Below, piece by piece: positions 5,654 to 47,639 of a stretch of 64,000 nucleotides of DNA. The notes under the pieces were generated by a model. It was not told the origin of the DNA and ran no database searches. It saw only the letters and a list, made by a program, of their open reading frames with translations. Position 1 is the first letter of the stretch. Every line of letters begins with the position of its first letter. Both the position numbers and the translations under genes were made by a program. Origin of the DNA: Methanobacteriota archaeon (GTDB taxonomy: Archaea > Undinarchaeota > Undinarchaeia > Undinarchaeales > Undinarchaeaceae); NCBI GenBank assembly GCA_002687935.1, contig NZBN01000007.1, forward strand, positions 5,030 to 69,029, given 5' to 3'.

Positions 5654-6556
5654 CTAAACTAGGTCTTTTACTCTCTCAACGAGAAGTTTTCCTATTCTTT
5701 CCTTTGCTTCTACTGTACTGCTTCCCAAGTGAGGTGTAAAAAGAATTCTGTCTCTATAGGAGAGAAGCTTTTCAGAAGCCTTCTTTCCCCAATATACATC
5801 AAGAGCTGCTCTTCCAATCTTACCACTTTCAATAGCAGAGTAGAATGCCTCTTCATCGAGAAGTTCCGCTCTTGCCGCGTTTACTATTAGGACTCCGTCC
5901 TTCATTTGTGAAAATTCATTTTCCCCAAGAAGTTCTTGCGTTTCCTTAGTAAGTGGCGCGTGCAGACTTATTATATCAGAGCTTGAAAGAAGCTCACTAA
6001 GTTCTGAACGCTTTACGGAAGCTTTCTGCATTTCTTCTTCTGGAGAATATGGGTCATAGGCTAAAACCTCCATTCCAAATGCCGAAGCAAGTTCGCTCAC
6101 TATTCTACCAACTCTGCCAAATCCTATTATTCCAAGTGTCTTTCCGGACAGCTCTATTCCGCTAAGACTGCCTTTCTCCCACTTTCCAGCCTTCGTAGAG
6201 GCATTTGCAGAGCAAATATTTCTGGAAAGATTTAACATAAGTCCCATTGTCAGCTCTGCAACACTCTGTGTCGGAGCTTCAGGAGTATTAAGAACCTTAA
6301 TTCCATTTTCCTTTGCAGCTTCCATGTCGATATTGTCCAGACCGACACCTGCACGAATAACTGCCTTAAGATTTTTTGCGGATGAAATAAGTTCTGATGT
6401 AACCTTTGTCCGGCTTCTCACTACAAGGATTTCAACATCAGCAATTTTTTCAAGAAGTTCTTCCGGACTAATAGCCGGAGCAAGTTCCAGCTCTCCCATT
6501 TCCCCAATTTCCTTTGCGGCTTCTTTGCTTATTGGATCTGTTATAAGTATTTTCAA
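5654..6556 (-). CDS. D-isomer-specific 2-hydroxyacid dehydrogenase (phosphoglycerate dehydrogenase-like, no ACT domain).
   Basis: GxGxxG Rossmann motif (GIIGFGRVG) and a catalytic His region (FTPHLGSST). Its start overlaps the stop of the adjacent class V aminotransferase. Confidence 0.75.
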   Translation of the reverse strand: MKILITDPISKEAAKEIGEMGELELAPAISPEELLEKIADVEILVVRSRTKVTSELISSAKNLKAVIRAGVGLDNIDMEAAKENGIKVLNTPEAPTQSVAELTMGLMLNLSRNICSANASTKAGKWEKGSLSGIELSGKTLGIIGFGRVGRIVSELASAFGMEVLAYDPYSPEEEMQKASVKRSELSELLSSSDIISLHAPLTKETQELLGENEFSQMKDGVLIVNAARAELLDEEAFYSAIESGKIGRAALDVYWGKKASEKLLSYRDRILFTPHLGSSTVEAKERIGKLLVERVKDLV

Positions 6557-9311: not shown

Positions 9312-11204
9312 TTATAACCTTTCTTCTATTTCCTTTCCAATTTTCTTAATAAAACTCTCAGCCTTTACACCAAACTTGACCTTTCCATCTCTCGTTCTGA
9401 TGGCAAGCGTTCCCTTTTCAACTTCCTTGTCTCCAATAGTTATTATATAGGGGACTTTCTCAAGTGTGGCATCTCTGACTTTCGCCTCAACACGCTCAGC
9501 TCGTGAATCCATCTCAAATCGGATTCCATTTTCCATCATCATTCCGGAAATCATCTCTGCATATTTATTGTGCCTGTCTGCAACCGTTATTATTTTAGCC
9601 TGAACTGGGGAAAGCCACACAGGGAATGCCCCTCCAAAGTGCTCTATCAATACAGCCATAAAACGTTCCATACTTCCAAGTATTGCAAGATGTATCATCA
9701 CCGGTCTGTGCGGACTGTTATCTTCTCCAATATACTCAAGCCCGAAGCGTTCCGGCATCTGGAAGTCAAGCTGTATAGTTCCTGTTTGCCACTCTCTTCC
9801 AAGAGAATCTCTCATCACAAAATCAATCTTTGGTCCATAGAATGCACCGTCACCTGGATTAAGAGAGAAAGGAACTTTGGTTTTCTTAAGAACATTAGTC
9901 AAGGCCTTTTCAGCCCTTTCCCAAAGCTCGTCTGAACCCATAGACTTCTCAGGTTTTGTCGATAGACGTATTGTGTATTCAAATCCAAATGTTTTGTATA
10001 CAGTTTCCACAAGCTCGAGAATTCCCTTTATTTCTGACTCAATTTGTTCAGGTGTTACATATGTATGATTATCGTCCTGTGTAAATGCGCGGACCCGCAT
10101 AAGTCCGTGAAGAACGCCAGAAAGTTCGTGTCTGTGAACATGTCCGAATTCAGAAAGTCTCAAAGGAAGTTCACGGTAACTCCTCGGTCGCGAAGCATAT
10201 ATCTTCGTATTTCCTGGGCAGTTCATCGGCTTTACAGCGTACTCGTTTTCATCAACTTCTGTCAGATACATATTTTCCTTATAGTGGTCCCAGTGACCTG
10301 ACTGGTGCCACAATTTATTATCCAGTATTTGCGGAGTCCTTACTTCATGGTACCTCTGCTTCAATTTTTCCTCAAGAAGGAATTTCTCAAGCTCTCTGTA
10401 TATTACCATCCCCTTTGGATGGAAGAATGGAAATCCAGGACCTTCTTCGTGGAAGGAAAACAAGTCCAGACTCTGCCCAAGTTTTCTATGGTCTCTTTTC
10501 TCAGCCTCTTCCTGCAGTTTTAGATACGTTTTCAACTGTTTTGTCTCTGGAAAACTGATTCCATAGAGTCTCTGCAACATGGCATTCTTGGAATCTCCCC
10601 TCCAATATGCCCCTGCCACCTTTGTCAGTTTAAATGCTTTCAACATCCCTGTTCTCGGAACATGACCGCCCCTGCAGAGGTCCATAAATTCTCCTTGTTT
10701 GTAAAATTGTATCTTATTCCCTGAAATTTCCTTCAAAATTTCCAATTTGTAGTTATTTCCCTTGAAAAATTCCTCAGCCTTCTTTCTTGTGAGAATTACA
10801 CGCTCGACTTCAAGGTCTTCCTTTACAATTTTCTGCATTTCCTGCTCTATAGCTTCGAAATCGCCTTCCGAAAAAGCGTATTTTGAATCAAAATCGTAGT
10901 AAAAGCCGTTTTCAACTGCAGGTCCTATTGTATTCCTAACATTTTTATGCAATCTTTGTATTGCCTGCATCATGAGGTGAGCTGTCGAATGCCAGAAAGC
11001 TTCCCTTCCTTCCGGTGAATCAAAAGTGAAAAAAACAACTGAAGCGGATTTCTCTATTGGCTCAAAAAGGTCCCCCATTTCTCCGTCAAGTGAACCAACA
11101 ATAGCAGCCTTCCCAAGCCTCGGTCCTATTGAGTAGGCAAGCTCTCCAAGTGTAGTTCCTTTCTTTGTTTCTTTCTTCGAGCCGTCGGGCAGGCGTATCT
11201 TCAT
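9312..11204 (-). CDS. thrS: Threonyl-tRNA synthetase of bacterial architecture (TGS + N2 editing + class II core + anticodon-binding).
   Basis: N-terminal TGS domain, HSTAHLM editing-domain motif, and class II motifs. Confidence 0.85.
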   Translation of the reverse strand: MKIRLPDGSKKETKKGTTLGELAYSIGPRLGKAAIVGSLDGEMGDLFEPIEKSASVVFFTFDSPEGREAFWHSTAHLMMQAIQRLHKNVRNTIGPAVENGFYYDFDSKYAFSEGDFEAIEQEMQKIVKEDLEVERVILTRKKAEEFFKGNNYKLEILKEISGNKIQFYKQGEFMDLCRGGHVPRTGMLKAFKLTKVAGAYWRGDSKNAMLQRLYGISFPETKQLKTYLKLQEEAEKRDHRKLGQSLDLFSFHEEGPGFPFFHPKGMVIYRELEKFLLEEKLKQRYHEVRTPQILDNKLWHQSGHWDHYKENMYLTEVDENEYAVKPMNCPGNTKIYASRPRSYRELPLRLSEFGHVHRHELSGVLHGLMRVRAFTQDDNHTYVTPEQIESEIKGILELVETVYKTFGFEYTIRLSTKPEKSMGSDELWERAEKALTNVLKKTKVPFSLNPGDGAFYGPKIDFVMRDSLGREWQTGTIQLDFQMPERFGLEYIGEDNSPHRPVMIHLAILGSMERFMAVLIEHFGGAFPVWLSPVQAKIITVADRHNKYAEMISGMMMENGIRFEMDSRAERVEAKVRDATLEKVPYIITIGDKEVEKGTLAIRTRDGKVKFGVKAESFIKKIGKEIEERL

Positions 11205-30396: not shown

Positions 30397-30450
30397 TCCT
30401 AATCTCTTGAAACTTCTGTGTTTATATAATGCTTTCGATTTTTTTATTAA

Positions 30451-30524
30451 CAGGCCCGCCGAGATTTGAACTCGGGTTACAAGCTCCGCAAGCTTATGTG
30501 ATATCCAGGCTACACTACGGGCCT
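30451..30524 (-). tRNA. tRNA-Arg(GCG).
   Basis: Hand-folded cloverleaf: acceptor AGGCCCG/CGGGCCU, anticodon stem UAAGC/GCUUG with loop UUGCGGA, T-arm CCGAG-UUCAAAU-CUCGG. No CCA encoded. Confidence 0.75.
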
Positions 30525-30568
30525 ATGAACTAAAAACTGTTTCTCCGCTGTTATATATCTTTCAGCTA

Positions 30569-30937
30569 TCAATAGCCACTGTCAGTAGCAACTGGAGCTG
30601 AGCACACACACTTCGGTTTCATAATATCATTAAGCTCCTCACAAGTATAATCTGTCACATTCTTAGGACATACCTGACAGTCTTCAACAGGAGGGCATTC
30701 CTTGACTTCCGGACATACTACTATTTCAGGACAGATAATCTCAGGACAGCTGATATCCTGGCATTCTGGCGTTGCAGCCAGTCCATACTGGTATCCAAAA
30801 TAACCTCCTCCAACTACTCCGAGAACAAGCATCAGAGTCGCCGCTTTTCCTGGAATAAGTTCCAAAATGAGATCTATAACATCAAGTATTCCGAAAAAAT
30901 CTACCTTCTCTTCTTTGTTCTTTCTTCGCTTTGCCAT
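30569..30937 (-). CDS. Small membrane-anchored Cys-rich protein with CPE repeats.
   Basis: One TM followed by CPEIICPEIVVCPEVKECPPVEDCQVCP. Confidence 0.45.
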   Translation of the reverse strand: MAKRRKNKEEKVDFFGILDVIDLILELIPGKAATLMLVLGVVGGGYFGYQYGLAATPECQDISCPEIICPEIVVCPEVKECPPVEDCQVCPKNVTDYTCEELNDIMKPKCVCSAPVATDSGY

Positions 30938-31050
30938 ATTATCACTATGTATGGTCTCTCTTTAAATCCTTCTTTTATCAAACTCAAGAATTTAATTCAT
31001 TTAATTGCCTAAGGCAAAGTATTTTTAAAAGAGCGCTTTACCGTGATAGT

Positions 31051-32232
31051 ATGAAGTGGGATTTGAACTTTGAAAGGCTGGAAGAAGACTTATTTTCTCT
31101 AATAGAAATTCCAAGTGTTTCCGGAAATGAACAGGCAATTTCAAATTTTATTCTAAGTACATTAAAAAAATCGGGTTTAAAACCAGAGCAGGATGAAATG
31201 GGGAATATTATTGTTCAGATTGATGGAAAGCACAAAGGAAAGCATGTTATTCTAAATGGTCATCTGGATACAGTTCCTCCTGGGAAGGGCTGGAAAGGAG
31301 ATCCCTATAAAGCAAGAAAGGCCAATGGCAGAATCTATGGTCTTGGTTCTGCGGATATGAAGGCAGGGCTTGCCATAATGATGGAGCTTTCCCGTATTTT
31401 TCATTCACTCAAAAGAAACTTTTGCGGAAAAGTTACTTTTACATTTACTGTCGGAGAGGAAGTTGAAGATCACAAGAGGCACGGTGCATATCATATAACT
31501 AAAAATTTGAAAGGTGATTTTGCCCTGGTTCTTGAGCCGTCCCAGCAGGACGATTCCAAGAAAATATGTGTAAAAGTTGGTAATGGCGGTCGCTGTATCT
31601 TGAAGGCTAAGATACACGGAAAAGCAGCCCATTCCAGCAGACCCTTTCTTGGAGTAAATGCGTTGGAACTTGGCTCTCTAGTAGTCAACAAAATTAGAAA
31701 AGAAGCTCCCAAAATTAAAGAATTCAAAATTAAAGAATTGGGTGTGAGTTTCAGGCCTGGTTTTTCTGTTACACAAATGAGTGTTGATGACAGTCCTTCT
31801 AATGTTATACCTGATTACTGCGAGTTAATAATAGACCGCAGAACAGTTCCAGGGGAAAAACGGACAGACATTATTAAGTATGTTCGTTCCATTTTGGAGT
31901 CCGTCAAAAAAGAAAGTGGTATTAAATTTAAGTATGAACTCAAATTACTTGGCTACAGGAGACCGATTTTAATGCCCCTGAATTCGAAATTATTGAAAAC
32001 TCTTATAGAAAAAGTAGAGAAGAGATATTCTTACACGCCACGTTTACTATTTTCACTGGGAACTTCCGATGCGGGATATTTCGAAAAAAGTGGTACACCT
32101 ACACTATCATTCGGACCTGGAGATTTATACCATATCCATAAAGCTAATGAGCACGTCTCTAGGGCGGGGCTTCGCGCATATGCACTGATTTGCATGGATA
32201 TAATTTCAGATGTATGTGAGACAGGAAAATAA
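31051..32232 (+). CDS. M20-family metallopeptidase / deacylase (ArgE/DapE/LysK-like).
   Basis: HLDTVP and GSADMKAG metal-binding motifs. Start chosen at ATG 31051. Confidence 0.75.
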   Translation: MKWDLNFERLEEDLFSLIEIPSVSGNEQAISNFILSTLKKSGLKPEQDEMGNIIVQIDGKHKGKHVILNGHLDTVPPGKGWKGDPYKARKANGRIYGLGSADMKAGLAIMMELSRIFHSLKRNFCGKVTFTFTVGEEVEDHKRHGAYHITKNLKGDFALVLEPSQQDDSKKICVKVGNGGRCILKAKIHGKAAHSSRPFLGVNALELGSLVVNKIRKEAPKIKEFKIKELGVSFRPGFSVTQMSVDDSPSNVIPDYCELIIDRRTVPGEKRTDIIKYVRSILESVKKESGIKFKYELKLLGYRRPILMPLNSKLLKTLIEKVEKRYSYTPRLLFSLGTSDAGYFEKSGTPTLSFGPGDLYHIHKANEHVSRAGLRAYALICMDIISDVCETGK

Positions 32233-32233
32233 C

Positions 32234-33577
32234 ATGAGAAAGTATCTAAAAAGACCAAAAGTAGGTATGGAAGTCGAGTTGTTTACTCTAGACAATAATG
32301 GAATTCCAGTTCCTGCTGTAGATAAATTGATTAAGAATTGTTCTGTGCAGAAGCGGCAATACGCAATACAAAGAGAATATGCAAAACACCTGCTCGAGAT
32401 TGGTGCCTTCCCAACAATACAGGTTAGAAATCTTGCCTTAAGTTTCCTTGAAAATTTAGAGGCAGTTACAGAGACTGCTGAAGAACAGGATTTATTTCTA
32501 TATCCTTTGGGAACCTATCCTGGAAAATTTACAGCAGAAGTCAGAAGAGAGTATTCTCATGTCGTACAAGAGAAAGTTATTGGTGAAGAAGTTAAAAATA
32601 TAGCTCCAAAGGTCGCAGGTTTCCACTTCCATTACGGTCTTCCAAGAGGAATTCTCAATCGCTCGACATATGAGCTTAGAATGACAAAAAATCCAAAGGA
32701 GAGGGAGGCATTTTTGAGTGAATATAATTTTTTGATAGCGGCCGACCCGGCTCTGACTACCTTTATGCAATCTTCACCTTTCTTTGAAGGGAAGCTCTTA
32801 GGAAAGGACAGCAGAACTTTGCTGTATCGTGATATGAAAAGCAAAGTTAATGATGAAATTATAAGAGGAATTTACAGAGAAGAGAGAACTTTTGGAAGAA
32901 TTCCGCGTTATGCTAATACGATTGCAGACTTAAACTTCCTTGTTGAGAAGCGCAGAAGTAGCTGGGAAGCCTTGATGAAGGATGCTGGTATGTCCTATAA
33001 GAAAATTTCACACAGGAAAAAACCACTTGACTTGTATTGGGGTCCTGTAAGGATTAACAAGCTCGGAACTTTAGAACAGCGTGGAATGGATATTAATGAG
33101 CCGAAATACGTTGTTGGAATTTCAATTCTCTTGAGGCATATACTCAGACAGATTAATAGGATGGATCTCAAAGTTAAGGCAAGCGATTTTGGTGCATACA
33201 AGCCCTTCAAACTGGAAGGCGATACTATTCATATAGCTCCCTTTTCAAAAGTTAAAAATGACTTGCAGTATAAGTCTGCGCTGGATGGTCTAGAGGACAA
33301 GGAAATTTTGCATTATTGCCAAAGCTTCTATCGTCTGGCAAAGAAATTTATAGAACATGACAGAGGTCTTGCTCTCAAATCAATCAAAAATATGCTAAAG
33401 ACAAAAAGAACCAAATCTGATATGGTAATCAGAGCTGCAAAGCGAAAGGGCTACTCTGGTGATTCTGAACTGCCTCAGGAAGTTGCTGCAGAAATAGCCA
33501 TAAAATACTCTAAAAAATTCATCACAGAAATAGAAAAAACCAAATCAGATATCAAAAATATCAGCTTAGATGATTAA
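32234..33577 (+). CDS. Carboxylate-amine ligase of the GCS2/YbdK family (glutamate-cysteine-ligase-like).
   Basis: GMEVELF, LGTYPG and FHFHYG motifs resemble YbdK LGIELE/GGTHPF/HVHVG. Start is 2 nt after the M20 stop. Confidence 0.6.
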   Translation: MRKYLKRPKVGMEVELFTLDNNGIPVPAVDKLIKNCSVQKRQYAIQREYAKHLLEIGAFPTIQVRNLALSFLENLEAVTETAEEQDLFLYPLGTYPGKFTAEVRREYSHVVQEKVIGEEVKNIAPKVAGFHFHYGLPRGILNRSTYELRMTKNPKEREAFLSEYNFLIAADPALTTFMQSSPFFEGKLLGKDSRTLLYRDMKSKVNDEIIRGIYREERTFGRIPRYANTIADLNFLVEKRRSSWEALMKDAGMSYKKISHRKKPLDLYWGPVRINKLGTLEQRGMDINEPKYVVGISILLRHILRQINRMDLKVKASDFGAYKPFKLEGDTIHIAPFSKVKNDLQYKSALDGLEDKEILHYCQSFYRLAKKFIEHDRGLALKSIKNMLKTKRTKSDMVIRAAKRKGYSGDSELPQEVAAEIAIKYSKKFITEIEKTKSDIKNISLDD

Positions 33578-33586
33578 ATTATATAG

Positions 33587-33661
33587 TGCACCCGGAGGGA
33601 TTTGAACCCCCGACTTCTGACTTAGGAGGTCAGCGCCTTATCCAGACTAGGCTACGGGTGC
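33587..33661 (-). tRNA. tRNA-Arg(CCU).
   Basis: Acceptor GCACCCG/CGGGUGC, anticodon loop CUCCUAA, T-arm GGGGG-UUCAAAU-CCCUC. Confidence 0.8.
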
Positions 33662-33701
33662 AGACACTCCAATCCATCTGTATATTCGTATTTATCTCTT
33701 A

Positions 33702-35435
33702 CTACATACGTTCAGGAATCCGTATTCCGAGCAAGTAGAGGCATCTTCCGAGTGTATTGTAAACAGACTGTACGAGAAGTATCCTCGCCTTCCTCACGTC
33801 CTTATCCGTTTCCTTCAGTACAGGATGCTGAGCATAGAATGCGTTAAATTTTTCCGCCAAGTGTATAGAATAGTTTGCGATTATATCTGGCCTGTAATTC
33901 TTTGAAGCTTCCCTTACAGCCATTGGAAATTTACTAAGGTGCTTTATTATTTCATATTCCTCATCGTTTGGAACCTTCATGTCAACTTTAGCGGGGTCAG
34001 GGAATTTTTTAACATCTTCAAGTATATGCATTGATCTTACCGTGGCATACTGTAGATAAGGTCCCGTTTCTCCTTCAAATTCAAGTGAGCGTTCCCAGTC
34101 AAAGAATATAGTTTTATTATTTCCAATGTTCAGCATCTGGAATTTCATTGCCCCTAAAGATATATCCAATGCTATCTTCCTCTGCATTCTCGGATCTATG
34201 TCAGGATTCCTCAGCATAACTTCCTCAAGCGCCTTTTCGAACATGCGGTTTTTCATTTCCGAGTAAAGTATTGAAGTTCCTTCTCTGGATGACATCTTCC
34301 CGGAAGCAAGTGTAACAAGGTCGTATGGTATGTGTTTGCATTTATCCGCGTTCTTGAATTTCATCTTCTTAAGCACATTAAAGAGCTGCTGGAAGTGAAG
34401 CCTCTGCTCTGAGCCGGTTATGTATATTGACTTGTCAATTCCATAATCTTCAAATTTAGTTTTTGCCAGAGCAAGGTCCTTTGTCGAATACAAAGCAGTT
34501 CCGTCTGAACGAAGAATCAGGAAAATACCGAGCTTCTCCGGTTTTTCCATATTTATGATAATAGCACCGTCACTTTTCTTTGCTATTTTTTCCTTAAGGA
34601 GCTCCTGTACTATCTCCTTCCCTGGCTTTTCCATCTGGCTTTCAAAGAACCACACATCAAAATGAGCGTCCAAATCTTCGTATATCTTATTGAAATCATT
34701 TATAGACCACTGCTTGGTTTCATTCCAGAGTTGCATTAGGTCTCCATCACTTTCGTCCTCGAGATTTCTGAGAACTTCTTCAACTTCTTTCTTATAGTCT
34801 GGATATTGTTCTATTTTTTCACAGGCTTCAGTGTAGAGCTTGCCCAGCCATTCTCCCTTGCTTTCCCGTGGAACTTCCCCTTCGTGGAATTTTCTATAAC
34901 ACCATAGGACCTTTGCTACATGCGCTCCGACATCTCCAGGGTAGTTCGCCTGAACAACTTCATATCCGGACTGCCTTAGTATCCTTGAAAGGCTCTCTCC
35001 TAGGGAAGTTCCTCTCAAATGTCCTATATGGAAAGCTTTGTGCGTATTCGCCTGACTGTATTCAACCATCACTTTCTCTTCCTGCGGAAGGTTTTGTCCA
35101 TAATCAGTTTTTACAGCTTCTTTCAGAACACTTCCCATAAACAAATCTTTCTTGAAGAAGAAATTAACATAGGCTCCTGCAAGCTTAACCTTTGAGCAGG
35201 ACTTCGGTTTTTTGATATTAGCAAGTATCTTTTCCGCAAATTCTCTCGGACTTTTTCTCTTCAGTTTTCCCAGCGGGAAAGAAACACTGCATGCAAGGTC
35301 TCCCATTTTATAACTTGGAGGTTCTTCAATAGTTCTTTCAATTTCCACTTGTGGCTTTAGTTTTAGCTTTTTCAGAACTTCTTTTACTGCTTCTACAACT
35401 TCTTCCCGTGCTTCCATCCAAGGGTCTGGTATCAA
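33702..35435 (-). CDS. argS: Arginyl-tRNA synthetase.
   Basis: Class I HIGH-like HIGHLRG motif, KMSS-like MSSR motif, and a C-terminal DALR anticodon-binding domain. Confidence 0.85.
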   Translation of the reverse strand: MIPDPWMEAREEVVEAVKEVLKKLKLKPQVEIERTIEEPPSYKMGDLACSVSFPLGKLKRKSPREFAEKILANIKKPKSCSKVKLAGAYVNFFFKKDLFMGSVLKEAVKTDYGQNLPQEEKVMVEYSQANTHKAFHIGHLRGTSLGESLSRILRQSGYEVVQANYPGDVGAHVAKVLWCYRKFHEGEVPRESKGEWLGKLYTEACEKIEQYPDYKKEVEEVLRNLEDESDGDLMQLWNETKQWSINDFNKIYEDLDAHFDVWFFESQMEKPGKEIVQELLKEKIAKKSDGAIIINMEKPEKLGIFLILRSDGTALYSTKDLALAKTKFEDYGIDKSIYITGSEQRLHFQQLFNVLKKMKFKNADKCKHIPYDLVTLASGKMSSREGTSILYSEMKNRMFEKALEEVMLRNPDIDPRMQRKIALDISLGAMKFQMLNIGNNKTIFFDWERSLEFEGETGPYLQYATVRSMHILEDVKKFPDPAKVDMKVPNDEEYEIIKHLSKFPMAVREASKNYRPDIIANYSIHLAEKFNAFYAQHPVLKETDKDVRKARILLVQSVYNTLGRCLYLLGIRIPERM

Positions 35436-35740
35436 TATTTCTTCTTTCTCAGGCTGTTTGACAGCTTTCTTGGGCGCCTTTTAGTTGTTTTTTTCTTTCC
35501 CTTAACAGCTTTCTTAACCAGCCTTTTCTTAGAAACTTTAGCTTTCTTCACTGCCTTTTTCTTAACAACTTTCTTCTTCACAGTCTTCCTGTTAACCTTA
35601 GCAACTTTCTTAGAAACTTTAAATTTCTTAACAGCTTTCCGCTTGTCCTTAACAGCCTTTTTAGAAGTCTTTTTCACAGTTTTAGTCTTTTTCACCATTT
35701 TCTTCTTCTTAATGGGGTTTTTCTTGTTTTTTACAGCCAT
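35432..35740 (-). CDS. Lysine-rich (~45 percent K) low-complexity basic protein, translationally coupled to argS.
   Basis: ATG at 35740 sits 8 nt after the tRNA-Arg(UCG) 3' end. KKAVKK-type repeats. Its stop overlaps the argS start (ATGA). Confidence 0.55.
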   Translation of the reverse strand: MAVKNKKNPIKKKKMVKKTKTVKKTSKKAVKDKRKAVKKFKVSKKVAKVNRKTVKKKVVKKKAVKKAKVSKKRLVKKAVKGKKKTTKRRPRKLSNSLRKKKY

Positions 35741-35748
35741 AATTTTTA

Positions 35749-35824
35749 TGGGCCCAACGGGATTTGAACCCGCAATCTCCTGGTCCGAAGCCAAGTGTCA
35801 TAATCCGGGTTAGACCATGGGCCC
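35749..35824 (-). tRNA. tRNA-Arg(UCG).
   Basis: Acceptor GGGCCCA/UGGGCCC, anticodon stem CUUGG/CCAGG with loop CUUCGGA, T-arm GCGGG-UUCAAAU-CCCGU. Confidence 0.75.
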
Positions 35825-35846
35825 GCTGTGTATATAGTTTTTTTGA

Positions 35847-36389
35847 TTAAATAGTATTCGCTACTATGCTCAATATCCCACTAAAGTAGTATGTTAGCAA
35901 AAAGTAGTTTCCTATTGTATTAAAGAAACCGAAGGCGATTCGCCGGTCAAGTGGGTCAAAAAATACACGGTTTCTGATGATTGAGAAAAGGACATTTGTG
36001 ATTAATATTATGGACCACAGAGCGAATTGATAAAGGAGATGGGGTGGCGCGAAACTGACCGCAATCACAACACAAAACAGGGCAATCATGTCCATAATCA
36101 CCCATGGTATTTTCTGTATATTTCCAAGAATTTTCCCAGCCGGGTTCAGGAAAATCGTACTCATAACTATGGCATACATCGCTTCTGACAGCCCCAGGGT
36201 TGCGACGGCTGCAATAAGAAAAACGTTGTGAAATTCGAGTTTCAGGTTATCATATATAGAGCTCGACCTACTTGCTATTGTGATAAGACTTACAAGAATG
36301 ACACCTTTCCAAGTTTCTGGATAGAGGAGCATAGGAAGAACCATACAAACTATGATGGTCGTTAGCAGAACCTTTGCTCCAGTTTTCAC
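35847..36389 (-). CDS. Hypothetical polytopic membrane protein.
   Basis: 5-6 hydrophobic helices. No signature recognised. Confidence 0.45.
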   Translation of the reverse strand: MKTGAKVLLTTIIVCMVLPMLLYPETWKGVILVSLITIASRSSSIYDNLKLEFHNVFLIAAVATLGLSEAMYAIVMSTIFLNPAGKILGNIQKIPWVIMDMIALFCVVIAVSFAPPHLLYQFALWSIILITNVLFSIIRNRVFFDPLDRRIAFGFFNTIGNYFLLTYYFSGILSIVANTI

Positions 36390-36468
36390 CGTATTTTGAT
36401 AAACAACATGAATTAAATAATCATCGATAGCAGCAAGCTTAAAATAACAGGCTTCAATATCAAAGTCT

Positions 36469-37098
36469 ATGGGAAAACGGGAGCAGTCTTTTACATTTTT
36501 GAAAAAATCAGGTTCTCTTGGCCTTATAACGGCTGTGTTTTTCCTTCTCGCCGTTTATGGACTTATAGCCTCATCTAATATTCTCTTTATTGCAGGACTT
36601 TTTACAATACTGAGTATTTACAGCAGAATATACTCATGCAAAGCGCCGCTTGACATTTCTGTCATCGGCATCGGCTCAATCTGCATCGCTGTAGTTAGTG
36701 ATGTGTGGCTCGCCGCAATCTTCGGATTTTCTATGTGGCTCATCACAATGATGTGGCAGCCTTATATTGAATTCAGCTACCAAATACCTCACGCCATCGC
36801 TTCATTTATTGTGATGCTATTCTTTCCACTTTTTATTTCATATGCAGGAAAAAACCTGGTTCTTATGGCAGTTTCTTATGCCCTTGTAAAGTTCATAATT
36901 GAATCTATACTTTTCACACCACTCCTTAGGCCCGCCACAATAATTCCTGATTTGATATTTAATCTTCAGGAGCTTCCCTTTACAATATTCTATACGGCCA
37001 TTGTAATGCAGTTTTTCGCCGGTCCAATCTTACTTTCTCTTGGAATTTCTGGCTGGGAAACAGGCTCCTTGTGGTTATTTATAAAAATGATTTTCTAA
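36469..37098 (+). CDS. Hypothetical polytopic membrane protein.
   Basis: 6-7 hydrophobic helices. Divergent from the neighbouring membrane gene. Confidence 0.45.
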   Translation: MGKREQSFTFLKKSGSLGLITAVFFLLAVYGLIASSNILFIAGLFTILSIYSRIYSCKAPLDISVIGIGSICIAVVSDVWLAAIFGFSMWLITMMWQPYIEFSYQIPHAIASFIVMLFFPLFISYAGKNLVLMAVSYALVKFIIESILFTPLLRPATIIPDLIFNLQELPFTIFYTAIVMQFFAGPILLSLGISGWETGSLWLFIKMIF

Positions 37099-37107
37099 AT
37101 AAGAAAG

Positions 37108-37182
37108 TGGGCCTGGAGGGATTTGAACCCCCGATCTATTGCTTAGAAGGCAATCGCCTTATCCAGACTAGGCTACAGGCCC
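37108..37182 (-). tRNA. tRNA-Arg(UCU).
   Basis: Acceptor GGGCCUG/CAGGCCC, anticodon loop CUUCUAA. D- and T-arms are near-identical to tRNA-Arg(CCU). Confidence 0.8.
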
Positions 37183-37207
37183 GACAAAACTATGGGCTAG
37201 GGTCTTT

Positions 37208-40200
37208 TTATCGCTTTCTGTGATAATCCTGTAAGGACATTGCCTCGTTGTGGACTCCATTATACTTTCTGAATTTTATTGCCTCAAGAGCGGCACCCGC
37301 CCCTGACATTGTCGTTATACAGGGAATTGCGTGTTTTATACAGGCTCTCCGTATTTTATAACCGGCCCTCTCCCGGCTTCCTGCGGTTGTCGGTGTATTT
37401 ATCACCAAATCAATTCCCTTCTCTTTAATCATAGTGACTATATCTGGTATCCCTTCTCCGGATTTCAAAACCTTCTGTACTTTAATTCCATTAATTCTCA
37501 ACATTTTAGCGGTTCTTCCCGCTCCTGCTATTTTGAATCCCATATTTTCAAATTCCTTCGCAATTTCCACAGTCTCTTCTTTGTCTTTATTCCGTACAGC
37601 GAAGAAAATTTTGCCTTTTTCCGGAAGCTTCAGACCTGCTCCTAATTGAGCTTTATAATAAGCGATTGGAAAGTTATCAGCAATTCCCATAGTTTCTCCT
37701 GTGCTTTTCATCTCGGGTCCAAGTGCCGTATCTGAGCCTGGTATTTTGTTGAAAGGAAAAACAACTGATTTCACAGACACATGTTGGGTTTTTCCTGGCT
37801 CAGTACACCCAAGTTCTTTCAGACTTTTTCCAAGCATAACTCTTGCAGCAATTTTCGCAAGTTGAATTCCAGATGCTTTGCTTATGAAGGGGACAGTTCT
37901 ACTACTTCTTGGATTTACTTCCAGAACATAGACAATAGAATCTCTGACTGCATACTGTATATTCAAAAGACCCTTTATGTTGAGTTCCCTAGCAAGTTCC
38001 TCTGTATATTTCTTAATAGTCTTGATTTCTGCATCTGTCAAAGTTTGCGTCGGCGTTACACAACTTGAGTCCCCTGAATGAATTCCTGCCTGTTCTATAT
38101 GTTCCATTATACCACCTATCAATGTGTCAGTTCCGTCTGAAACCGCGTCTACATCTATTTCTGTTGCACTCCCTAAAAATTCGTCTATCAATACTGGGTG
38201 TTCCTTTGAAACCTTTACAGCCTCGTTAATATATCGTTCAAGATCTAAATCATTAAACACAATTTCCATTGCCCTTCCTCCTATCACATAACTTGGGCGT
38301 ATTAGAACCGGATATACAATTTTTTCTATTACTTCTCGTGCTTCCTCAAGGCTGTGAGCAATACCATTCTCTGCTTGCGGTATTCCCAATTTTTCTATAA
38401 TCTTTGAGAACTTATCCCTGTCCTCAGCTCGGTCCATGTCCTTCGGAGAAGTTCCCAATATATTCACACCCGCCTTTTCCAATAAAAGAGAAAGATTAAC
38501 AGAAGTCTGTCCTCCAAATTGTGTCATCACTCCGTAGGGCTTTTCATTATTAATTATTCTCATCACACTGCTAAATGTCAGTGGCTCGAAATAAAGACGG
38601 TCTGAAGTATCATAGTCTGTTGATACCGTCTCTGGATTATTGTTAATTATTATTGATTCAAAACCTTCTTTTTGTATCGCCCCAAGTGCATGAACAGTGG
38701 AGTAATCAAATTCAATTCCCTGCCCAATTCGTATAGGACCTGAACCAAGTATCATAATCTTCTTTTTATCTTCAGCTACTGCTTCATTCTCTCCTTCTGC
38801 AGAATAAAAGTAAGGTGTCTTTGCTTCAAACTCAGCTGCGCAAGTATCAACCATCTTGAAGCCCTCTATTTCTTCCCTTTCTAAAAACACTCTTTTAACT
38901 CCATTGAGGAACCAAGGGTCTATCTTGGTCAATTTGTGTATTTCTTCCACTGATACTCCTTTTTTCAGAGCGGATGCTATATAGAAAAGTCTTTTGTGCG
39001 TCGGTATTTCAAGCAGATAAAGATTTTCAAAATCCTCAAGACCTTCTTTCAAACTTTCTTTGTCAATATCAAGACTTGCTACAGCCTTTTCCAGACTCTC
39101 TTCAAAGGTTCTGCCTATTGCCATAACTTCACCAGTTGCCCGCATTTCAGTTCCCAATGTTCTGTCAGCAAGATGGAACTTCTCAAAAGGCCACCTTGGT
39201 ATCTTGGTTACAATATAATCAAGAGCAGGCTCAAAACTTGCCTTAGTCTCCTCAGTGATGGGATTGTCTATCTCATCAAGAGTCATTCCTATTGATATTT
39301 TCGCCGCAATAAGTGCTATTGGATACCCCGTCGCCTTTGATGCCAGAGCAGAGCTTCTGGAAACCCTCGGATTTACCTCTATCACAATATATCTGTTACT
39401 TTCTGGGTCAAGTGCAAACTGAATATTACAACCTCCCTCCACATTCAGAGCTCTGATTATTTTCAGAGATGCAGTCCTCAGCATCTGATATTCTTTATCG
39501 GTCAGAGTCTGTGATGGGGCGACAACTATACTGTCTCCAGTATGAATTCCCACTGGATCAAAATTTTCCATATTGCAGACAGTTATACAATTGTCTGCCG
39601 AATCCCGCATTACTTCATATTCTATTTCCTTCCAACCAGTGACACACTCTTCAATCAGAATCTGCCCAATCCTACTGTTCGCTATTCCTCCTGAGGATAT
39701 ACTTTCAAGTTCCCGCATATTTTCAGCTATCCCTCCACCTGTTCCTCCAAGCGTATATGCAGGTCTAACTATTACAGGAAATCCAACTTCTTCTGCTATC
39801 CGTTTTGATTCATCGACACTGGTTGCTATTCCTGATTTTGGTATAGGCTCGCCTATTTTAATCATCATATCTTTGAAAAGTTCCCTGTCTTCACAGTCCT
39901 TTATTGCCTTCAGCGGAGTTCCAAGTATCTCTACATTATTTTTTTCAAGAATTCCGGAATCTGCCAGCTCTGCAGTAAGATTAAGACCTGTTTGTCCCCC
40001 AAAACTGGACAGAACTCCGTCCGGCTTTTCCTTTTCAATTATTCTTTCAAGAGATTCAAGTGTCAGTGGCTCAATATATACAGAGTCCGCCATATCACTG
40101 TCAGTTTGTATAGTCGCAGGATTAGAATTCACTACTACAGTTTTCAGACCTTCTTCGCGCATTGACTTCAGAGCCTGCGACCCTGAATAATCAAATTCTG

Positions 40201-40270
40201 CAGCCTGTCCGATAATAACTGGACCTGCTCCTATCACCAGAACTTTTTTGATATCATTTCTTTTTGGCAT
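37208..40270 (-). CDS. carB: Carbamoyl-phosphate synthase large subunit.
   Basis: Two ATP-grasp halves and a C-terminal MGS-like domain. ~1020 aa. Confidence 0.9.
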   Translation of the reverse strand: MPKRNDIKKVLVIGAGPVIIGQAAEFDYSGSQALKSMREEGLKTVVVNSNPATIQTDSDMADSVYIEPLTLESLERIIEKEKPDGVLSSFGGQTGLNLTAELADSGILEKNNVEILGTPLKAIKDCEDRELFKDMMIKIGEPIPKSGIATSVDESKRIAEEVGFPVIVRPAYTLGGTGGGIAENMRELESISSGGIANSRIGQILIEECVTGWKEIEYEVMRDSADNCITVCNMENFDPVGIHTGDSIVVAPSQTLTDKEYQMLRTASLKIIRALNVEGGCNIQFALDPESNRYIVIEVNPRVSRSSALASKATGYPIALIAAKISIGMTLDEIDNPITEETKASFEPALDYIVTKIPRWPFEKFHLADRTLGTEMRATGEVMAIGRTFEESLEKAVASLDIDKESLKEGLEDFENLYLLEIPTHKRLFYIASALKKGVSVEEIHKLTKIDPWFLNGVKRVFLEREEIEGFKMVDTCAAEFEAKTPYFYSAEGENEAVAEDKKKIMILGSGPIRIGQGIEFDYSTVHALGAIQKEGFESIIINNNPETVSTDYDTSDRLYFEPLTFSSVMRIINNEKPYGVMTQFGGQTSVNLSLLLEKAGVNILGTSPKDMDRAEDRDKFSKIIEKLGIPQAENGIAHSLEEAREVIEKIVYPVLIRPSYVIGGRAMEIVFNDLDLERYINEAVKVSKEHPVLIDEFLGSATEIDVDAVSDGTDTLIGGIMEHIEQAGIHSGDSSCVTPTQTLTDAEIKTIKKYTEELARELNIKGLLNIQYAVRDSIVYVLEVNPRSSRTVPFISKASGIQLAKIAARVMLGKSLKELGCTEPGKTQHVSVKSVVFPFNKIPGSDTALGPEMKSTGETMGIADNFPIAYYKAQLGAGLKLPEKGKIFFAVRNKDKEETVEIAKEFENMGFKIAGAGRTAKMLRINGIKVQKVLKSGEGIPDIVTMIKEKGIDLVINTPTTAGSRERAGYKIRRACIKHAIPCITTMSGAGAALEAIKFRKYNGVHNEAMSLQDYHRKR

Positions 40271-41360
40271 TCATTAACTCCACAAATTTGTCAAATAAAT
40301 ATTCATTATCTTGTGGTCCTGGACATCCTTCTGGATGGTATTGAACTGAAAATATCGGAAGTTCTTTGTGGCGCATTCCTTCAACAGAGCTGTCATTAAG
40401 ATTTATATGACTTACTTCAAATCCACTACCCTCTATGCTTTTTGCATCCAGGGAGTATCCATGGTTTTGTGTTGTTATGTAAATTTTTCCACTTTCCAAA
40501 TCCTTAACTCCGTGATTTACTCCACGGTGTCCGAATTTAAGCTTGTAAGTCTTTGCCCCAGCAGCCAGCCCTATAATCTGATGACCGAGGCAAATCCCAA
40601 AAAGTGGGACTTCACCAAAGAGGTTCTTTACAGTATCAATTAAATAGGGAACCATTTCCGGGTCTCCTGGTCCACTTGAAACTATTACTCCGTCTGCTCC
40701 TTTCAGAATTTCTTCAGCACTTGTCGTCGGTGGAACAACACGGACGCTGACCCCTCGCTTGAGAAGACATCTGACCATATTTTGCTTTGCTCCACAATCT
40801 ACAAGTGTGACATTAAAATTTCCATCAACTTTGTATATTTCATCTTTCTTCCTTGAAACTTCTGGCAAAAGGTCTTCACTGTCAGGATAAGGTGTTTTTC
40901 TGAGTTCTTCTGCCACTTTTTCAGTATCGACCCCTTCCTTGCAAATTTTCCCCCGCATCGTTCCGTGCTCTCTCAACTTTCTGGTCAGAGCTCTGGTGTC
41001 TATTCCACTCACTCCGGGGATTTTATATTCTTTAAGAAACTCTCCAAGAGTTTTTTTTGACCTATGGTTTGAGGGCAGTTCACAGGAACTTGAAACAAGA
41101 AGTCCTCGTACTTGTATTTCCTTGGATTCAAAATCTTCACTAGTTATCCCATAATTTCCTGCAAGCGGATAAGTCATAGTAAGTATTTGCCCTCTGTATG
41201 ATGGGTCAGTAAGAGCTTCCTGATATCCGGTCATTCCAGTGCTAAACACAACTTCTCCAAAAACTTCAGAATCTTCTCCGAAAAACTCCCCTCTAAAAAC
41301 AAGTCCGTCCTCAAGTACAAGTAGTGCCTTTTCTCCCACAGTTTCCACTCTACCTAGCAA
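40254..41360 (-). CDS. carA: Carbamoyl-phosphate synthase small (glutaminase) subunit.
   Basis: CPSase small-chain N-domain plus a GATase (GICLGHQ) domain. Confidence 0.9.
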   Translation of the reverse strand: MLGRVETVGEKALLVLEDGLVFRGEFFGEDSEVFGEVVFSTGMTGYQEALTDPSYRGQILTMTYPLAGNYGITSEDFESKEIQVRGLLVSSSCELPSNHRSKKTLGEFLKEYKIPGVSGIDTRALTRKLREHGTMRGKICKEGVDTEKVAEELRKTPYPDSEDLLPEVSRKKDEIYKVDGNFNVTLVDCGAKQNMVRCLLKRGVSVRVVPPTTSAEEILKGADGVIVSSGPGDPEMVPYLIDTVKNLFGEVPLFGICLGHQIIGLAAGAKTYKLKFGHRGVNHGVKDLESGKIYITTQNHGYSLDAKSIEGSGFEVSHINLNDSSVEGMRHKELPIFSVQYHPEGCPGPQDNEYLFDKFVELMNAKKK

Positions 41361-45850: not shown

Positions 45851-46003
45851 CTAATTTGGTAGGAATCTGCAGACTGTTGTTCCGCATCCGCTTCCACACT
45901 TACCCTTTGCCATTTTTCTGTTGTTTTTTGTGGTTGTAACGTTTGCGTCTGTAATGTCTACTTCCTTTTGGCACTTCATGCACCTTCCTTTGTAGTCAGC
46001 CAT
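45851..46003 (-). CDS. Candidate ~50-aa duplicated zinc-ribbon protein (CxxC...CxxCGT).
   Basis: GGAGG-N5-ATG Shine-Dalgarno context at 46003. The exact frame depends on one nucleotide near 45960 that could not be re-verified by eye. Confidence 0.3.
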   Translation of the reverse strand: MADYKGRCMKCQKEVDITDANVTTTKNNRKMAKGKCGSGCGTTVCRFLPN

Positions 46004-46279
46004 TTTACCCTCCTTTTAAGCGATATGCTTAAAATTCCATACATTCCTCCGTTTAATAGTGTTTCTATTCGTGAAAATCCTTAAATAGTGGGTTTTTCAT
46101 AGCTATGTTGATTAAAATGATTAGAAGTGAGTGTCTTCATAGTTGAGGAAAACAAAGCTTTTAGTCAGGATTCTAAAAAAATTTCATTTAGAGCTTCAGC
46201 TGTTTTCACAGTCAATAAAACTGGTCCGGATCAAACACGCAAGCGTGTAGGTCCGGTCCAATCTATAATCAATAAAAAT

Positions 46280-46352
46280 GGCCCGGATGGGGTAATGGTT
46301 ATCCTTCCAGCTTGTGGAGCTAGAGATCCGAGTTCAATTCTCGGTCCGGGCC
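46280..46352 (+). tRNA. tRNA-His(GUG) with genome-encoded G-1 pairing the C73 discriminator.
   Basis: 8-bp acceptor stem (G-1:C73), U8, A14, anticodon loop UUGUGGA, T-arm CCGAG-UUCAAUU-CUCGG. One C-A mismatch in the anticodon stem. Confidence 0.65.
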
Positions 46353-46373
46353 CTCAGTCTCAAGGTGATTGCT

Positions 46374-47639
46374 ATGGCTTTTGAAAAAGCAAAAGGAACA
46401 CGTGACTTTAGTCCTCAGGAAATGTCTCTGAGAAACTATGTTTTCGACACAATAAGGAGAGTTTACAAGACCTATGGCTATCAGGAACTGGAAACTCCGG
46501 CCTTCGAGCGCTGGGAAACCCTCAATGCAAAGAGTGTCGGCGGAGAGGATGTTTCTAAAGAGATATTCCGCTTTACTGACTACGGTGAGAGGGAGATGGG
46601 TCTCCGCTTTGACTTGACAGTTCCAATGGCACGCTATATTGCCAACAATCCAATGATTCCAAGACCTTTCAAGCGCTTCCAGATAGGGCGCGTATGGCGC
46701 TATGACCAGCCCCAGGCTGGGCGTTACCGAGAGTTCTGGCAGGCAGACGTCGATGTTGTGGGCTCTACGGAGGTTGAGGCAGATCTTGATGCAGTAGGGG
46801 CTGTTGTAGCCTCGCTTAAAGAGCTTGGTTTCAAAGATTTCATAGTTGAAGTAAATAACAGGGCGCTTCTAGAAGAAATTGCAGAGCTTTTCGAAATTCC
46901 ACGAGTTAAGTGCCCTGACTTGTTCAGATGTATAGATAAGCTCGACAAGATAGGGATGGACGCTGTCAAAAAGGAAATAGCGGACAAAGGAATCAAAAAT
47001 GTTGACAAGTTTCTCAACTTTATAGAGACTGCCGGCATGAAGGAGCTTGAAGAAAAACTGCCTGAAAGCGCCGAACTTGCCAAAACAAAGGAGCTTCTGA
47101 AGGCTTCAAAAGCCCTCGGCCTTGGAAAATATCTAAAACTTACTCTGTCTATGGTGCGCGGACTTGCTTACTATACCAGCTTTGTATTCGAGATAAAAGT
47201 TAAAGGGATGGAAAAATACGGAAGCGTTGGTGCTGGAGGTCGCTATGACAACCTCATCGGAGTCTACGGAAAATCTACTATGCCGGCAACAGGCTGTTCC
47301 ATCGGCGTTGAAAGGATAATAGAGATAATGAAAGAGCGAAAAATGGTAGACATCCCGAAAACTGAGACTAAAGTCCTCGTCATTCCAATTGGGAACACTT
47401 TCAAAGATGCCGCAAAAATTGTCCAGCAGCTCAGAGATGCCGGAATTCCATCATCAATAGACTTGATGAAGCGCGGTCCGAGCAAGCTCTTCAATTATGC
47501 AAATTCTCTTGGTATAGCGTTTTCACTTGCGGTAGGTGAGAAAGAAGTAAAATCAAAGAAATACACCTTGAAGAATATGGAAAGTGGTAAGCAGGAAGAG
47601 CTCGGTATTGAGAAAATAATCAATAAATTATCAAACTAA
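46374..47639 (+). CDS. hisS: Histidyl-tRNA synthetase.
   Basis: Class II motifs and a HisRS anticodon-binding domain. ATG 46374 chosen rather than the GTG at 46314, which overlaps the tRNA. Confidence 0.85.
   Translation: MAFEKAKGTRDFSPQEMSLRNYVFDTIRRVYKTYGYQELETPAFERWETLNAKSVGGEDVSKEIFRFTDYGEREMGLRFDLTVPMARYIANNPMIPRPFKRFQIGRVWRYDQPQAGRYREFWQADVDVVGSTEVEADLDAVGAVVASLKELGFKDFIVEVNNRALLEEIAELFEIPRVKCPDLFRCIDKLDKIGMDAVKKEIADKGIKNVDKFLNFIETAGMKELEEKLPESAELAKTKELLKASKALGLGKYLKLTLSMVRGLAYYTSFVFEIKVKGMEKYGSVGAGGRYDNLIGVYGKSTMPATGCSIGVERIIEIMKERKMVDIPKTETKVLVIPIGNTFKDAAKIVQQLRDAGIPSSIDLMKRGPSKLFNYANSLGIAFSLAVGEKEVKSKKYTLKNMESGKQEELGIEKIINKLSN

Follow-up and report, generated by a model that had tools for sequence, protein, structure and literature searches.

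We analysed a stretch of 64,000 nucleotides from contig NZBN01000007.1 of an archaeon of the Undinarchaeota (assembly GCA_002687935.1; the whole stretch is henceforth referred to as the window), in which the histidyl-tRNA synthetase gene hisS directly follows the gene of its cognate transfer RNA (tRNA), tRNA-His(GUG). We found that a conserved leader open reading frame (ORF) lies about 140 nucleotides 5' of the tRNA gene, and that the frame shifted by +1 at a Leu-His codon pair in this leader is free of stop codons through the whole tRNA gene up to the start of hisS. We consider it probable, from the comparison of related loci, that tRNA-His and hisS form one unit gated by this leader, which would sense histidine by means of a +1 frameshift. 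The features of the locus are as follows (SD: Shine–Dalgarno; BRE: TFB recognition element; P site and A site: peptidyl and aminoacyl sites of the ribosome):

46073–46088, forward strand: archaeal BRE/TATA promoter gaaaatCCTTAAATAG, with a conserved TATA box CCTTAAATAG at 46079–46088
46110–46166, forward strand: candidate long-range helix P1, in which GATTAAAATG (46110–46119, including the leader AUG) pairs with CTTTTAGTC (46158–46166)
46117–46146, forward strand: leader ORF in frame 0, 9 codons, ATG ATT AGA AGT GAG TGT CTT CAT AGT TGA (MIRSECLHS*)
46126–46131, forward strand: G-rich SD-like box AGTGAG, exactly 3 nucleotides 5' of the shift codon
46135–46140, forward strand: proposed site of the +1 shift, with the Leu codon CTT in the P site and the His codon CAT in the A site
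46139–46384, forward strand: +1-frame ORF of 81 codons, spanning the spacer, a 57-nucleotide insertion, tRNA-His and the hisS SD motif and ATG, with its TGA at 46382–46384
46221–46277, forward strand: 57-nucleotide insertion (19 codons, no +1 stop), missing from the relative L081 (95% HisRS identity) and flanked by a 20-nucleotide direct repeat that includes the first 9 nucleotides of the tRNA
46280–46352, forward strand: tRNA-His(GUG), with encoded G-1, C73 and a C28·A42 mismatch; CCA is not encoded
46353–46373, forward strand: gap of 21 nucleotides between tRNA-His and hisS, with the SD motif AAGGTGAT at 46362–46369
46374–47639, forward strand: hisS, class II histidyl-tRNA synthetase of 421 residues (Pfam)

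A stop-free +1 frame runs through the tRNA gene to the start of hisS

Reading frames were traced from the CTT-CAY codon pair in 11 related loci. We found that frame 0 ended within 2–3 codons of the pair, and that the +1 frame remained open for 57–147 codons in 11/11 loci (147 in L089), crossing an AT-rich spacer, the tRNA-His gene with its introns and the gap in front of hisS. Specifically, not one of the 921 codons of the +1 frame was a stop, compared with 54 and 89 stops in the other two frames, and the stop that eventually closed it always fell between −2 and +10 nucleotides relative to the hisS ATG (as an ATGA overlap in four loci, 10 nucleotides inside hisS in four including the window, and abutting the ATG in two). 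Shuffled spacers were stop-free with a probability of 0.007–0.105 at each locus, and these values multiply to about 1e-15. The phase of the frame was also locked: the distance from CTT to the tRNA gene was congruent modulo 3 in 11/11 loci, with spacers ranging from 64 to 172 nucleotides, and two independent insertions, one of 57 nucleotides (window vs. L081) and one of 90 nucleotides (L086 vs. L087), were both in frame and stop-free. Given that the openness of the +1 frame is all that is kept, while the sequence of the encoded peptide is not conserved among the loci, selection appears to act on the transit of ribosomes to the hisS start.

The region of the 57-nucleotide insertion (46212–46288) contains a hairpin, ACACG-CAAG-CGTGT, and two GGTCCGG copies, and the 90-nucleotide insertion of L086 repeats part of the 5' end of the tRNA. 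A mobile-element origin of the 57-nucleotide insertion was rejected, as it occurs in a single copy in the window and looks like a partial duplication.

One alternative, which we regard as unlikely, is co-transcription without any recoding: RNase P and tRNase Z would separate the tRNA from the mRNA, the leader would be a plain upstream ORF or a histidine-sensitive pause, and the long ORF would either have a start of its own or not be translated. This account fits the short gaps (21 nucleotides here, and 8 nucleotides in a second tandem of the window, tRNA-Arg(UCG) and argS), the shared strand and the absence of a terminator; it also fits the conservation of the Arg tandem, and the presence of a tRNA-His/hisS tandem in bacteria of the Candidate Phyla Radiation (CPR), without the cassette of leader elements described below. 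It leaves unexplained, however, why a stop-free and phase-locked +1 frame should persist in all 11 loci through spacers, introns and insertions.

The leader combines an SD-like box with a Leu-His codon pair

Leader ORFs of 9–11 codons with the pattern M-x-x-[SR]-[DE]-C-L-H-x(1,2)-stop were present in the 11 loci, the peptides of relatives being, for example, MKASECLHR*, MKTSECLHN*, MKISDCLHKY*, MKGICDCLHK*, MTRRDCLHI* and MMNRRDCLHSC*. Insertions and deletions within these ORFs preserve the frame, and each of the three stop codons occurs. The leader contains no run of His codons; a single one is conserved (two occur in L081), and it directly follows CUU.

The box, the Leu codon and the His codon recur together as a cassette with the consensus [AG]G[TG]GA[TG]-NNN-CUU-CAY, in which the spacer varies in sequence and the box is fixed at 3 nucleotides (about 26 cassettes). 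The Leu codon of every CUU-type cassette is CTT and never a synonymous codon, CAY changes only synonymously, and all cassettes of the window's lineage carry CUU_C. CUU is the shift codon of both prfB (CUU UGA) and Ty1 (CUU AGG), and a slow A site is what drives +1 shifts (PMC5009743). In the cassettes the A-site codon, which is always His CAY, would be slow to a degree that depends on the level of His-tRNA-His, and pairing rules suggest that a tRNA-Leu with anticodon GAG could re-pair on UUC. By analogy with prfB, the G-rich box would have a stimulatory role.

The mechanism that we propose can be outlined as follows. When His-tRNA-His is plentiful, CAU would be decoded and translation would end two codons further on. 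When it is scarce, peptidyl-tRNA-Leu would slip from CUU to UUC and bring the ribosome into the +1 frame, in which it would read 81 codons over the spacer and the still unprocessed tRNA-His and terminate 10 nucleotides inside hisS. On terminating there, it would couple into the translation of hisS, and it may also sustain transcription. The tRNA-His would later be excised by RNase P and tRNase Z, after which the hisS mRNA would retain a 21-nucleotide leader bearing its SD motif and hence a basal level of expression. Because the sensed His-tRNA-His is the joint product of both genes, such a unit would be self-regulating in the manner of release factor 2 (RF2) and its gene prfB.

The cassette recurs at hisG and at other genes

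The motif GANTGYCTTCAY was found again in relatives just 5' of hisG (L083, L088 and L089). These hisG cassettes have their own SD motif and ATG in frame 0 (e.g., MKNSADCLHFGRTE*), and the body of HisG is encoded in the +1 frame; on the HisG profile TIGR00070, the alignment of the shifted product begins at position 1–2, at or adjoining the Leu encoded by CUU. None of the hisG cassettes has an ATG further 5' in the +1 frame, and L089 is the only one with a GTG there, which lies inside the box. The existing gene calls for hisG started instead at a TTG or GTG inside the gene, or at an ATG further on.

We also found +1-frame fusions of the cassette to hisS itself (L122 and L131), to an amino-acid racemase of the Asp/Glu type (L104, 1914–2652), to AbrB/MraZ-like small ORFs (L010, 30–294; L089, 5305–5506), to an ORF resembling radical S-adenosylmethionine (SAM) proteins (L152, 296–1487) and to two unannotated ORFs of the Iainarchaeote L045 (476–1253 and 1250–2303), whose +1 products have no Pfam match. 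At such sites the shift would yield HisG or other +1 products. Two cassettes stand in series in L028 and L156. The arrangement of the window is complete in Micrarchaeota L026, with a cassette, 105 codons through an intron-containing tRNA-His and an ATGA overlap with hisS.

The racemase, the radical-SAM-like ORF and the L045 ORFs have no obvious link to histidine. Small AbrB/MazE/MraZ-like ORFs are tied to the system, some of them with tRNA-His as a C-terminal tail and others as the +1 product; an AbrB-like ORF itself reads through tRNA-His in L095/L096 (1170–1493), L152 (3–299) and L156 (981–1337). This hints at an AbrB-like transcription regulator that would be made only under histidine shortage.

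The combination of motif and cassette ORF geometry was strongly specific for His codons, which gave 26/44 matches vs. 35/704 for all other codons (0–5 for each other residue or stop). Co-transcription without recoding accounts neither for this specificity nor for the fact that CUU is never synonymously replaced. The window holds one qualifying site, at 46135, and no cassettes of an Arg type or for any other codon were found in it or in the Arg loci; nor did we find a cassette in the CPR loci L031 and L067, where the tandem is present. A copy of the leader motif with one mismatch, GAGTGTCTGCAC, lies at 33658–33669 on the reverse strand over the 5' end of tRNA-Arg(CCU) and is probably due to chance (7 matches vs. 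5.6 expected).

On the strength of these comparisons we lean, by a modest degree, towards the view that DPANN archaea (Undinarchaeota, Micrarchaeota, Woesearchaeota, Iainarchaeota and others) share a modular, prfB-like +1 sensor of histidine that gates hisG, hisS, AbrB-like regulators and other genes, and that in the tRNA-His–hisS unit the shifted ribosome translates the tRNA gene, introns included.

In L083, L088 and L089, hisS lies directly 5' of a short-form hisG (about 200 residues), which is followed by hisD-hisB and so on. Short HisG normally requires HisZ, a paralogue of HisRS, and the HisRS of these three loci may, judging by the gene order, double as the partner of HisG.

The tRNA-His and hisS genes form a conserved tandem

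ARAGORN called six tRNA genes in the window, among them tRNA-His(GTG) at 46281–46353 on the forward strand, and the Rfam tRNA model (RF00005) scored 46281–46352 at 52.1 bits, against a gathering threshold of 29. The G at 46280 faces the discriminator C73 at 46352, meaning that the G-1 of this tRNA-His is encoded in the genome, as it is in all relatives examined. The anticodon stem contains a single mismatch, C28·A42. As exactly this tRNA sequence recurs in the relative L081 (HisRS 95% identical), the mismatch does not stem from an assembly error. An earlier note on this DNA had described a tRNA-His(GUG) with G-1 opposite C73, 21 nucleotides before the hisS ATG on the same strand, and one C-A mismatch in its anticodon stem; the coordinates and both tRNA searches bear out this description. 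The hisS gene starts with the ATG at 46374 (not 46375), its stop ends at 47639, and its product matches the Pfam families tRNA-synt_His (PF13393, 1.1e-47) and HGTP_anticodon (PF03129, 1.9e-17). We retrieved 4296 HisRS homologues; for HisRS and ArgRS alike, the best named homologues came from Undinarchaeales and Naiadarchaeum (about 53–58% identity), and one protein from a JGI metagenome reached 95%. On this evidence the host is a DPANN archaeon close to Undinarchaeota, to which archaeal BRE/TATA promoters and translation led by SD motifs apply.

We looked for a terminator-like site in the 21-nucleotide gap and found none. The gaps of the His and Arg tandems are too short for an archaeal TATA promoter, which together with the absence of a terminator-like site nearly forces co-transcription in both cases, such that tRNA-His and hisS would share one transcript. 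The coordinated expression that had been suggested for the pair is thus the right direction. The tetramers GGAG, GAGG, AGGT and GGTG were 4–5 times enriched 5' of start codons in the window, indicating that SD motifs are used in this genome; the enrichment of GGTGA-N-ATG was uninformative (11 matches vs. 9.9 expected) and was replaced by this start-codon-anchored count.

To place the tandem in a wider context, we considered close relatives (L081–L096, i.e., assemblies from JGI, NCBI, ENA and Logan spanning 48–95% HisRS identity) and a scan of 80 hisS loci, one genome per species. In every close relative fetched, tRNA-His lies directly 5' of hisS on the same strand, 11–60 nucleotides from its start. 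Among the 80 scanned loci, 10 have tRNA-His 5' of hisS on the same strand: at most 170 nucleotides away in Woesearchaeota L011 and L017, the unclassified archaeon L049, Parvarchaeota L050, Micrarchaeota L026 (the most distant, 168 nucleotides) and the CPR bacteria L031 and L067, and 0.7–1.3 kb away in L028, L036 and L078. All other tRNA types together occur only 6 times across these loci. The His and Arg tandems are kept in relatives whose HisRS and ArgRS identity goes down to about 50–55%.

The smallness of the window, and the fact that one of its three synthetase genes (thrS) has no cognate tRNA beside it, could have pointed to a chance adjacency or to an artefact of assembly or annotation. 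The arrangement is repeated, however, in dozens of independent assemblies from all four sources; it is kept in all close relatives and in 7 loci of other phyla, and tRNAs other than tRNA-His are rare in this position. We thus exclude chance adjacency, and an artefact of any such kind, refuted as it is by conservation, has next to no probability left.

A more specific proposal was that the level of the synthetase is set through its own tRNA substrate, either by processing of the precursor tRNA-His, as the earlier note had suggested, or by HisRS binding to it, with bound HisRS blocking ribosome entry as at thrS of Escherichia coli, or with tRNase Z creating a translatable 5' end. In this tRNA HisRS would find a full substrate (G-1:C73) 11 nucleotides from the SD motif, a tRNase Z cut at argS would leave an effectively leaderless mRNA with 8 nucleotides, and the processing of such precursors is established biochemistry. 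The distance between tRNA and start codon is variable, however, both among close relatives and beyond them (up to the 168 nucleotides of L026), and the SD region has no significant structure: folding of the hisS 5' region gave z-scores of −1.5 to +1.3, which lends no support to sequestration of the SD motif upstream of hisS. This proposal also leaves the conserved leader and the open frame unaccounted for. We therefore hold it to be improbable; nothing in the analysis points to control by tRNA processing, and the comparison points to the upstream leader.

Introns are common in the tRNA-His and tRNA-Arg genes of relatives (L084/L093, L090, L094, L026 and L011). The tRNA-His of L089 (3675–3979) has two introns, one of about 240 nucleotides; further tRNA introns occur in L173 (5514–5960 and 8179–8361) and L174 (about 5775–5890), and L096 and L174 have introns in the T-arm or T-loop. 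Several of these intron-bearing genes are missed or mistyped by ARAGORN without its intron mode. The tRNA-His genes of L036, a metagenome-assembled genome (MAG) labelled Gammaproteobacteria, and L078, a Shapirobacteria MAG, differ by one base, which suggests that the L036 bin is misclassified.

A promoter and a covarying helix belong to the leader

A box of the TTTAAATA type is kept in 10 divergent loci with its end 26–31 nucleotides 5' of the leader ATG, so transcription would start a few bases 5' of this ATG. The tRNA-His genes of the window's lineage have no well-placed TATA box of their own, and the promoter at 46073–46088 probably drives the whole leader–tRNA-His–hisS unit. A scan for sigma-70 promoters was set aside because the host is archaeal, and only its terminator part was used. 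We found no hairpin switch between terminator and antiterminator: there is no terminator-like site between leader and tRNA, only P1 and short U stretches.

P1 was predicted by RNAalifold, with 84.5% of cells paired, and its covariation score was 0.327 compared with 0.163 in shuffles (0/500 shuffles reached 0.327); slid controls scored lower. The 3' partner of the helix is a TTTAGC box located 14–20 nucleotides past the leader stop. P1 could confine translation of the leader to transcripts that are still being made, or else have a part in termination.

The covariation of P1 is an argument for reading the leader as a structured regulatory RNA akin to a riboswitch or attenuator, in which P1 would close a conserved core of about 55 nucleotides with a small hairpin and sense a ligand, a tRNA or a protein, the ORFs being by-products. 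Leader codon 3 invariably ends in A, which suggests a constraint at the RNA level, and the inner hairpin is retained in one of two registers. This reading predicts, however, neither a stop-free frame through the tRNA nor a stop at the hisS ATG. The cassettes at hisG and other genes keep the box, CUU and CAY without a P1 partner, and the leader matches no Rfam family other than tRNA, the T-box model giving no match at the gathering threshold or at E ≤ 10. We find it very doubtful that the leader acts in this way.

Three further candidates for the leader were tried and rejected: weak Rfam matches to C/D-box and H/ACA RNAs (E = 3–8), as relatives have no conserved C and D boxes; a hairpin mimicking the anticodon arm of tRNA-His for HisRS, as its loop GUG is not conserved; and a T-box-like specifier presenting CAC, as the element is too small and matches no model. 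Divergent from the leader, at 45851–46003 on the reverse strand, lies a zinc-ribbon ORF of 50 residues (DUF5679 in relatives) with a strong SD motif, which is syntenic in most relatives.

The arginine tandem lacks the cassette

The second tandem of the window, together with the other tRNA-Arg genes nearby, comprises the following features:

30450–30525: tRNA-Arg(GCG), which with the UCU, UCG and CCU genes makes four Arg isoacceptors within 7 kb
33586–33661, reverse strand: tRNA-Arg(CCU), starting 40 nucleotides after the argS stop; kept in L172 and L173
33702–35740, reverse strand: argS, with Pfam ArgRS domains and a lysine-rich N-terminal extension of about 105 residues; its frame in the window is split at 35479–35482
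35749–35824, reverse strand: tRNA-Arg(UCG), ending 8 nucleotides 5' of the true argS start; position kept in L172, L173 and L174
37107–37182, reverse strand: tRNA-Arg(UCU), directly after carB; kept beside carAB in L172, L173 and L174

As read, the window shows a lysine-rich ORF of 102 codons 8 nucleotides after tRNA-Arg(UCG), with the apparent start of argS about 310 nucleotides further on. Two homologues, P0121 (679 residues, 100% identical over the catalytic part) and P0122 (678 residues, 90% identical), join both parts in a single ORF. The window has AAAA at 35479–35482, and one added A (AAAAA) restores the sequence of P0121, which places the true argS start at 35740. The difference between four and five A's stems either from an error of assembly or from true variation. 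The claim that tRNA-Arg(UCG) and argS form such a tandem thus stands for the corrected start, from which the tRNA is 8 nucleotides away, and fails for the window as read. The lysine-rich extension of ArgRS resembles the tRNA-binding appendages of eukaryotic synthetases.

The gene order carAB – tRNA-Arg(UCU) – tRNA-Arg(UCG) – argS – tRNA-Arg(CCU) – tRNA-Arg(GCG) is kept in L172, L173 and L174. It belongs to an arginine island (30450–41360, mostly on the reverse strand) in which 11 kb hold argS and an M20 peptidase along with carA-carB and four of the five tRNA-Arg isoacceptors. The peptidase (30931–32232) is possibly ArgE-like, and the cluster of L173 also includes argH, argB and argF.

We looked for an open frame through tRNA-Arg(UCG) and found only short frames at chance level. 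Since the Arg locus has no frameshift cassette, the Arg and His tandems must work differently; for argS, plain co-transcription is likely, with tRNase Z leaving a nearly leaderless mRNA. The third synthetase gene, thrS (9312–11204, reverse strand), has no adjoining tRNA-Thr in the window, and the pairing of tRNA and synthetase is therefore not general in this genome. Of the systematic arrangement that had been suggested on the basis of the two tandems, what remains is that both are real and conserved; thrS stands without tRNA-Thr, and the His cassette is absent at the Arg locus.

Evidence for and against a frameshift

Several observations weigh against a frameshift at the leader. About half of the cassettes (those with the box AGTGAK) hold a +1-frame GTG within the box, and L017 and L049 hold an ATG, so the long ORF could be initiated independently there, much as co-transcription without recoding would have it. 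Cassettes with an AGGGAT box, by contrast, have no +1 start codon and still precede long essential ORFs (the racemase of L104, the ORFs of L152 and L045, and hisG of L083 and L088), which that account cannot explain. In L011, L050 and L031 the tandem is present, yet no frame stays open as far as hisS. Several cassettes of the Woesearchaeota type carry AUU (Ile; AUU_C) in place of CUU, and re-pairing after a +1 shift is poorer for AUU. The complementarity of the box to the presumed anti-SD sequence extends over only 4–5 nucleotides, a single regulatory codon makes a weaker sensor than classical leader peptides have, and the covarying helix P1 has no settled place in the frameshift model. Moreover, hisS has an SD motif of its own and an unstructured 5' region, which makes the added value of an arriving ribosome uncertain. 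The support for the model comes throughout from sequence comparison.

Comparison with known systems

The closest counterpart is prfB, in which CUU is also the P-site codon, an SD-like box lies exactly 3 nucleotides upstream, frame 0 ends early and the full product is encoded in the +1 frame. In both cases the A-site decoder comes from the very gene or genes under control, which results (here putatively) in negative feedback. The A site of prfB, a bacterial gene, is the stop codon UGA, whereas here it is a sense codon (His CAY), the host is archaeal, and the aminoacyl-tRNA would come from two genes. Unlike that of prfB, the +1 ORF at tRNA-His/hisS encodes no conserved protein and would only ferry the ribosome through the tRNA gene to the next start.

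In Ty1 and ABP140 (CUU AGG C), and in laboratory shifting at 'hungry codons', tRNA-Leu slips on CUU while a scarce aminoacyl-tRNA is awaited (PMC5009743), as we propose for the leader. Ty1 depends on a constitutively rare tRNA-Arg and yields a fixed product ratio, whereas here the slow codon matches the controlled pathway (tRNA-His, hisS and hisG), which implies conditional sensing.

Among the known controls of histidine genes, enterobacterial hisL likewise places a short translated leader before them and raises expression when charged tRNA-His is low. It relies on 7 consecutive His codons and on alternative terminator and antiterminator hairpins; the leader described here has one His codon, its output would be a reading frame, and no terminator switch was found. 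The T-boxes of Firmicutes (hisS and his operons) cover the same set of genes and respond to the charging of tRNA-His, but do so through direct binding between RNA and tRNA, whereas the present element is far smaller, has no T-box match and would sense on the ribosome.

A tRNA 5' of a protein gene, with the 5' end of the mRNA formed by tRNA processing, is also known from the thrU-tyrU-glyT-thrT-tufB operon of E. coli and from tRNA punctuation in mitochondria, and by analogy such an origin of the 5' end probably applies to tRNA-Arg(UCG)-argS and to basal hisS expression. In neither of these systems is the tRNA cognate to a following synthetase, as it is here, where the pairing is phylum-wide and tRNA-His lies inside a maintained frame. 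The thrS operator of E. coli places a tRNA-shaped element just 5' of the ribosome-binding site of a synthetase. It is tRNA-like, whereas at our locus there is a genuine tRNA gene (with introns in some relatives) at a variable distance from the SD motif, and control by HisRS binding is unsupported.

A 2021 review lists for Archaea a single cellular frameshift of the −1 type and none of the +1 type (PMC8211752). Our literature search, which left subscription journals mostly uncovered, found no description of the tandem, of a frameshift at a His codon or of an ORF through a tRNA gene.

Implications

The means by which archaea match the supply of amino acids to the expression of synthetase and biosynthesis genes are, to our knowledge, largely unknown, and we know of neither T-boxes nor leader-peptide attenuators found in archaea. 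If our interpretation holds true, the locus would provide three firsts: a cellular programmed +1 frameshift in Archaea, an amino-acid sensor that works in nature as a frameshift switch, and a tRNA gene maintained within a translated frame. The leader would add a third solution for the control of histidine genes, after attenuation and T-boxes, and would extend autoregulation in the style of prfB from a stop codon to a sense codon.

Such a mechanism would also explain why the tRNA and the synthetase have stayed together. It would affect the annotation of DPANN genomes, in which hisG and other genes would have been miscalled or truncated and spurious ORFs placed over tRNA-His. For the biology of these archaea, the locus offers a concrete hypothesis, namely that a single His codon following a slippery CUU acts as the sensor of histidine.

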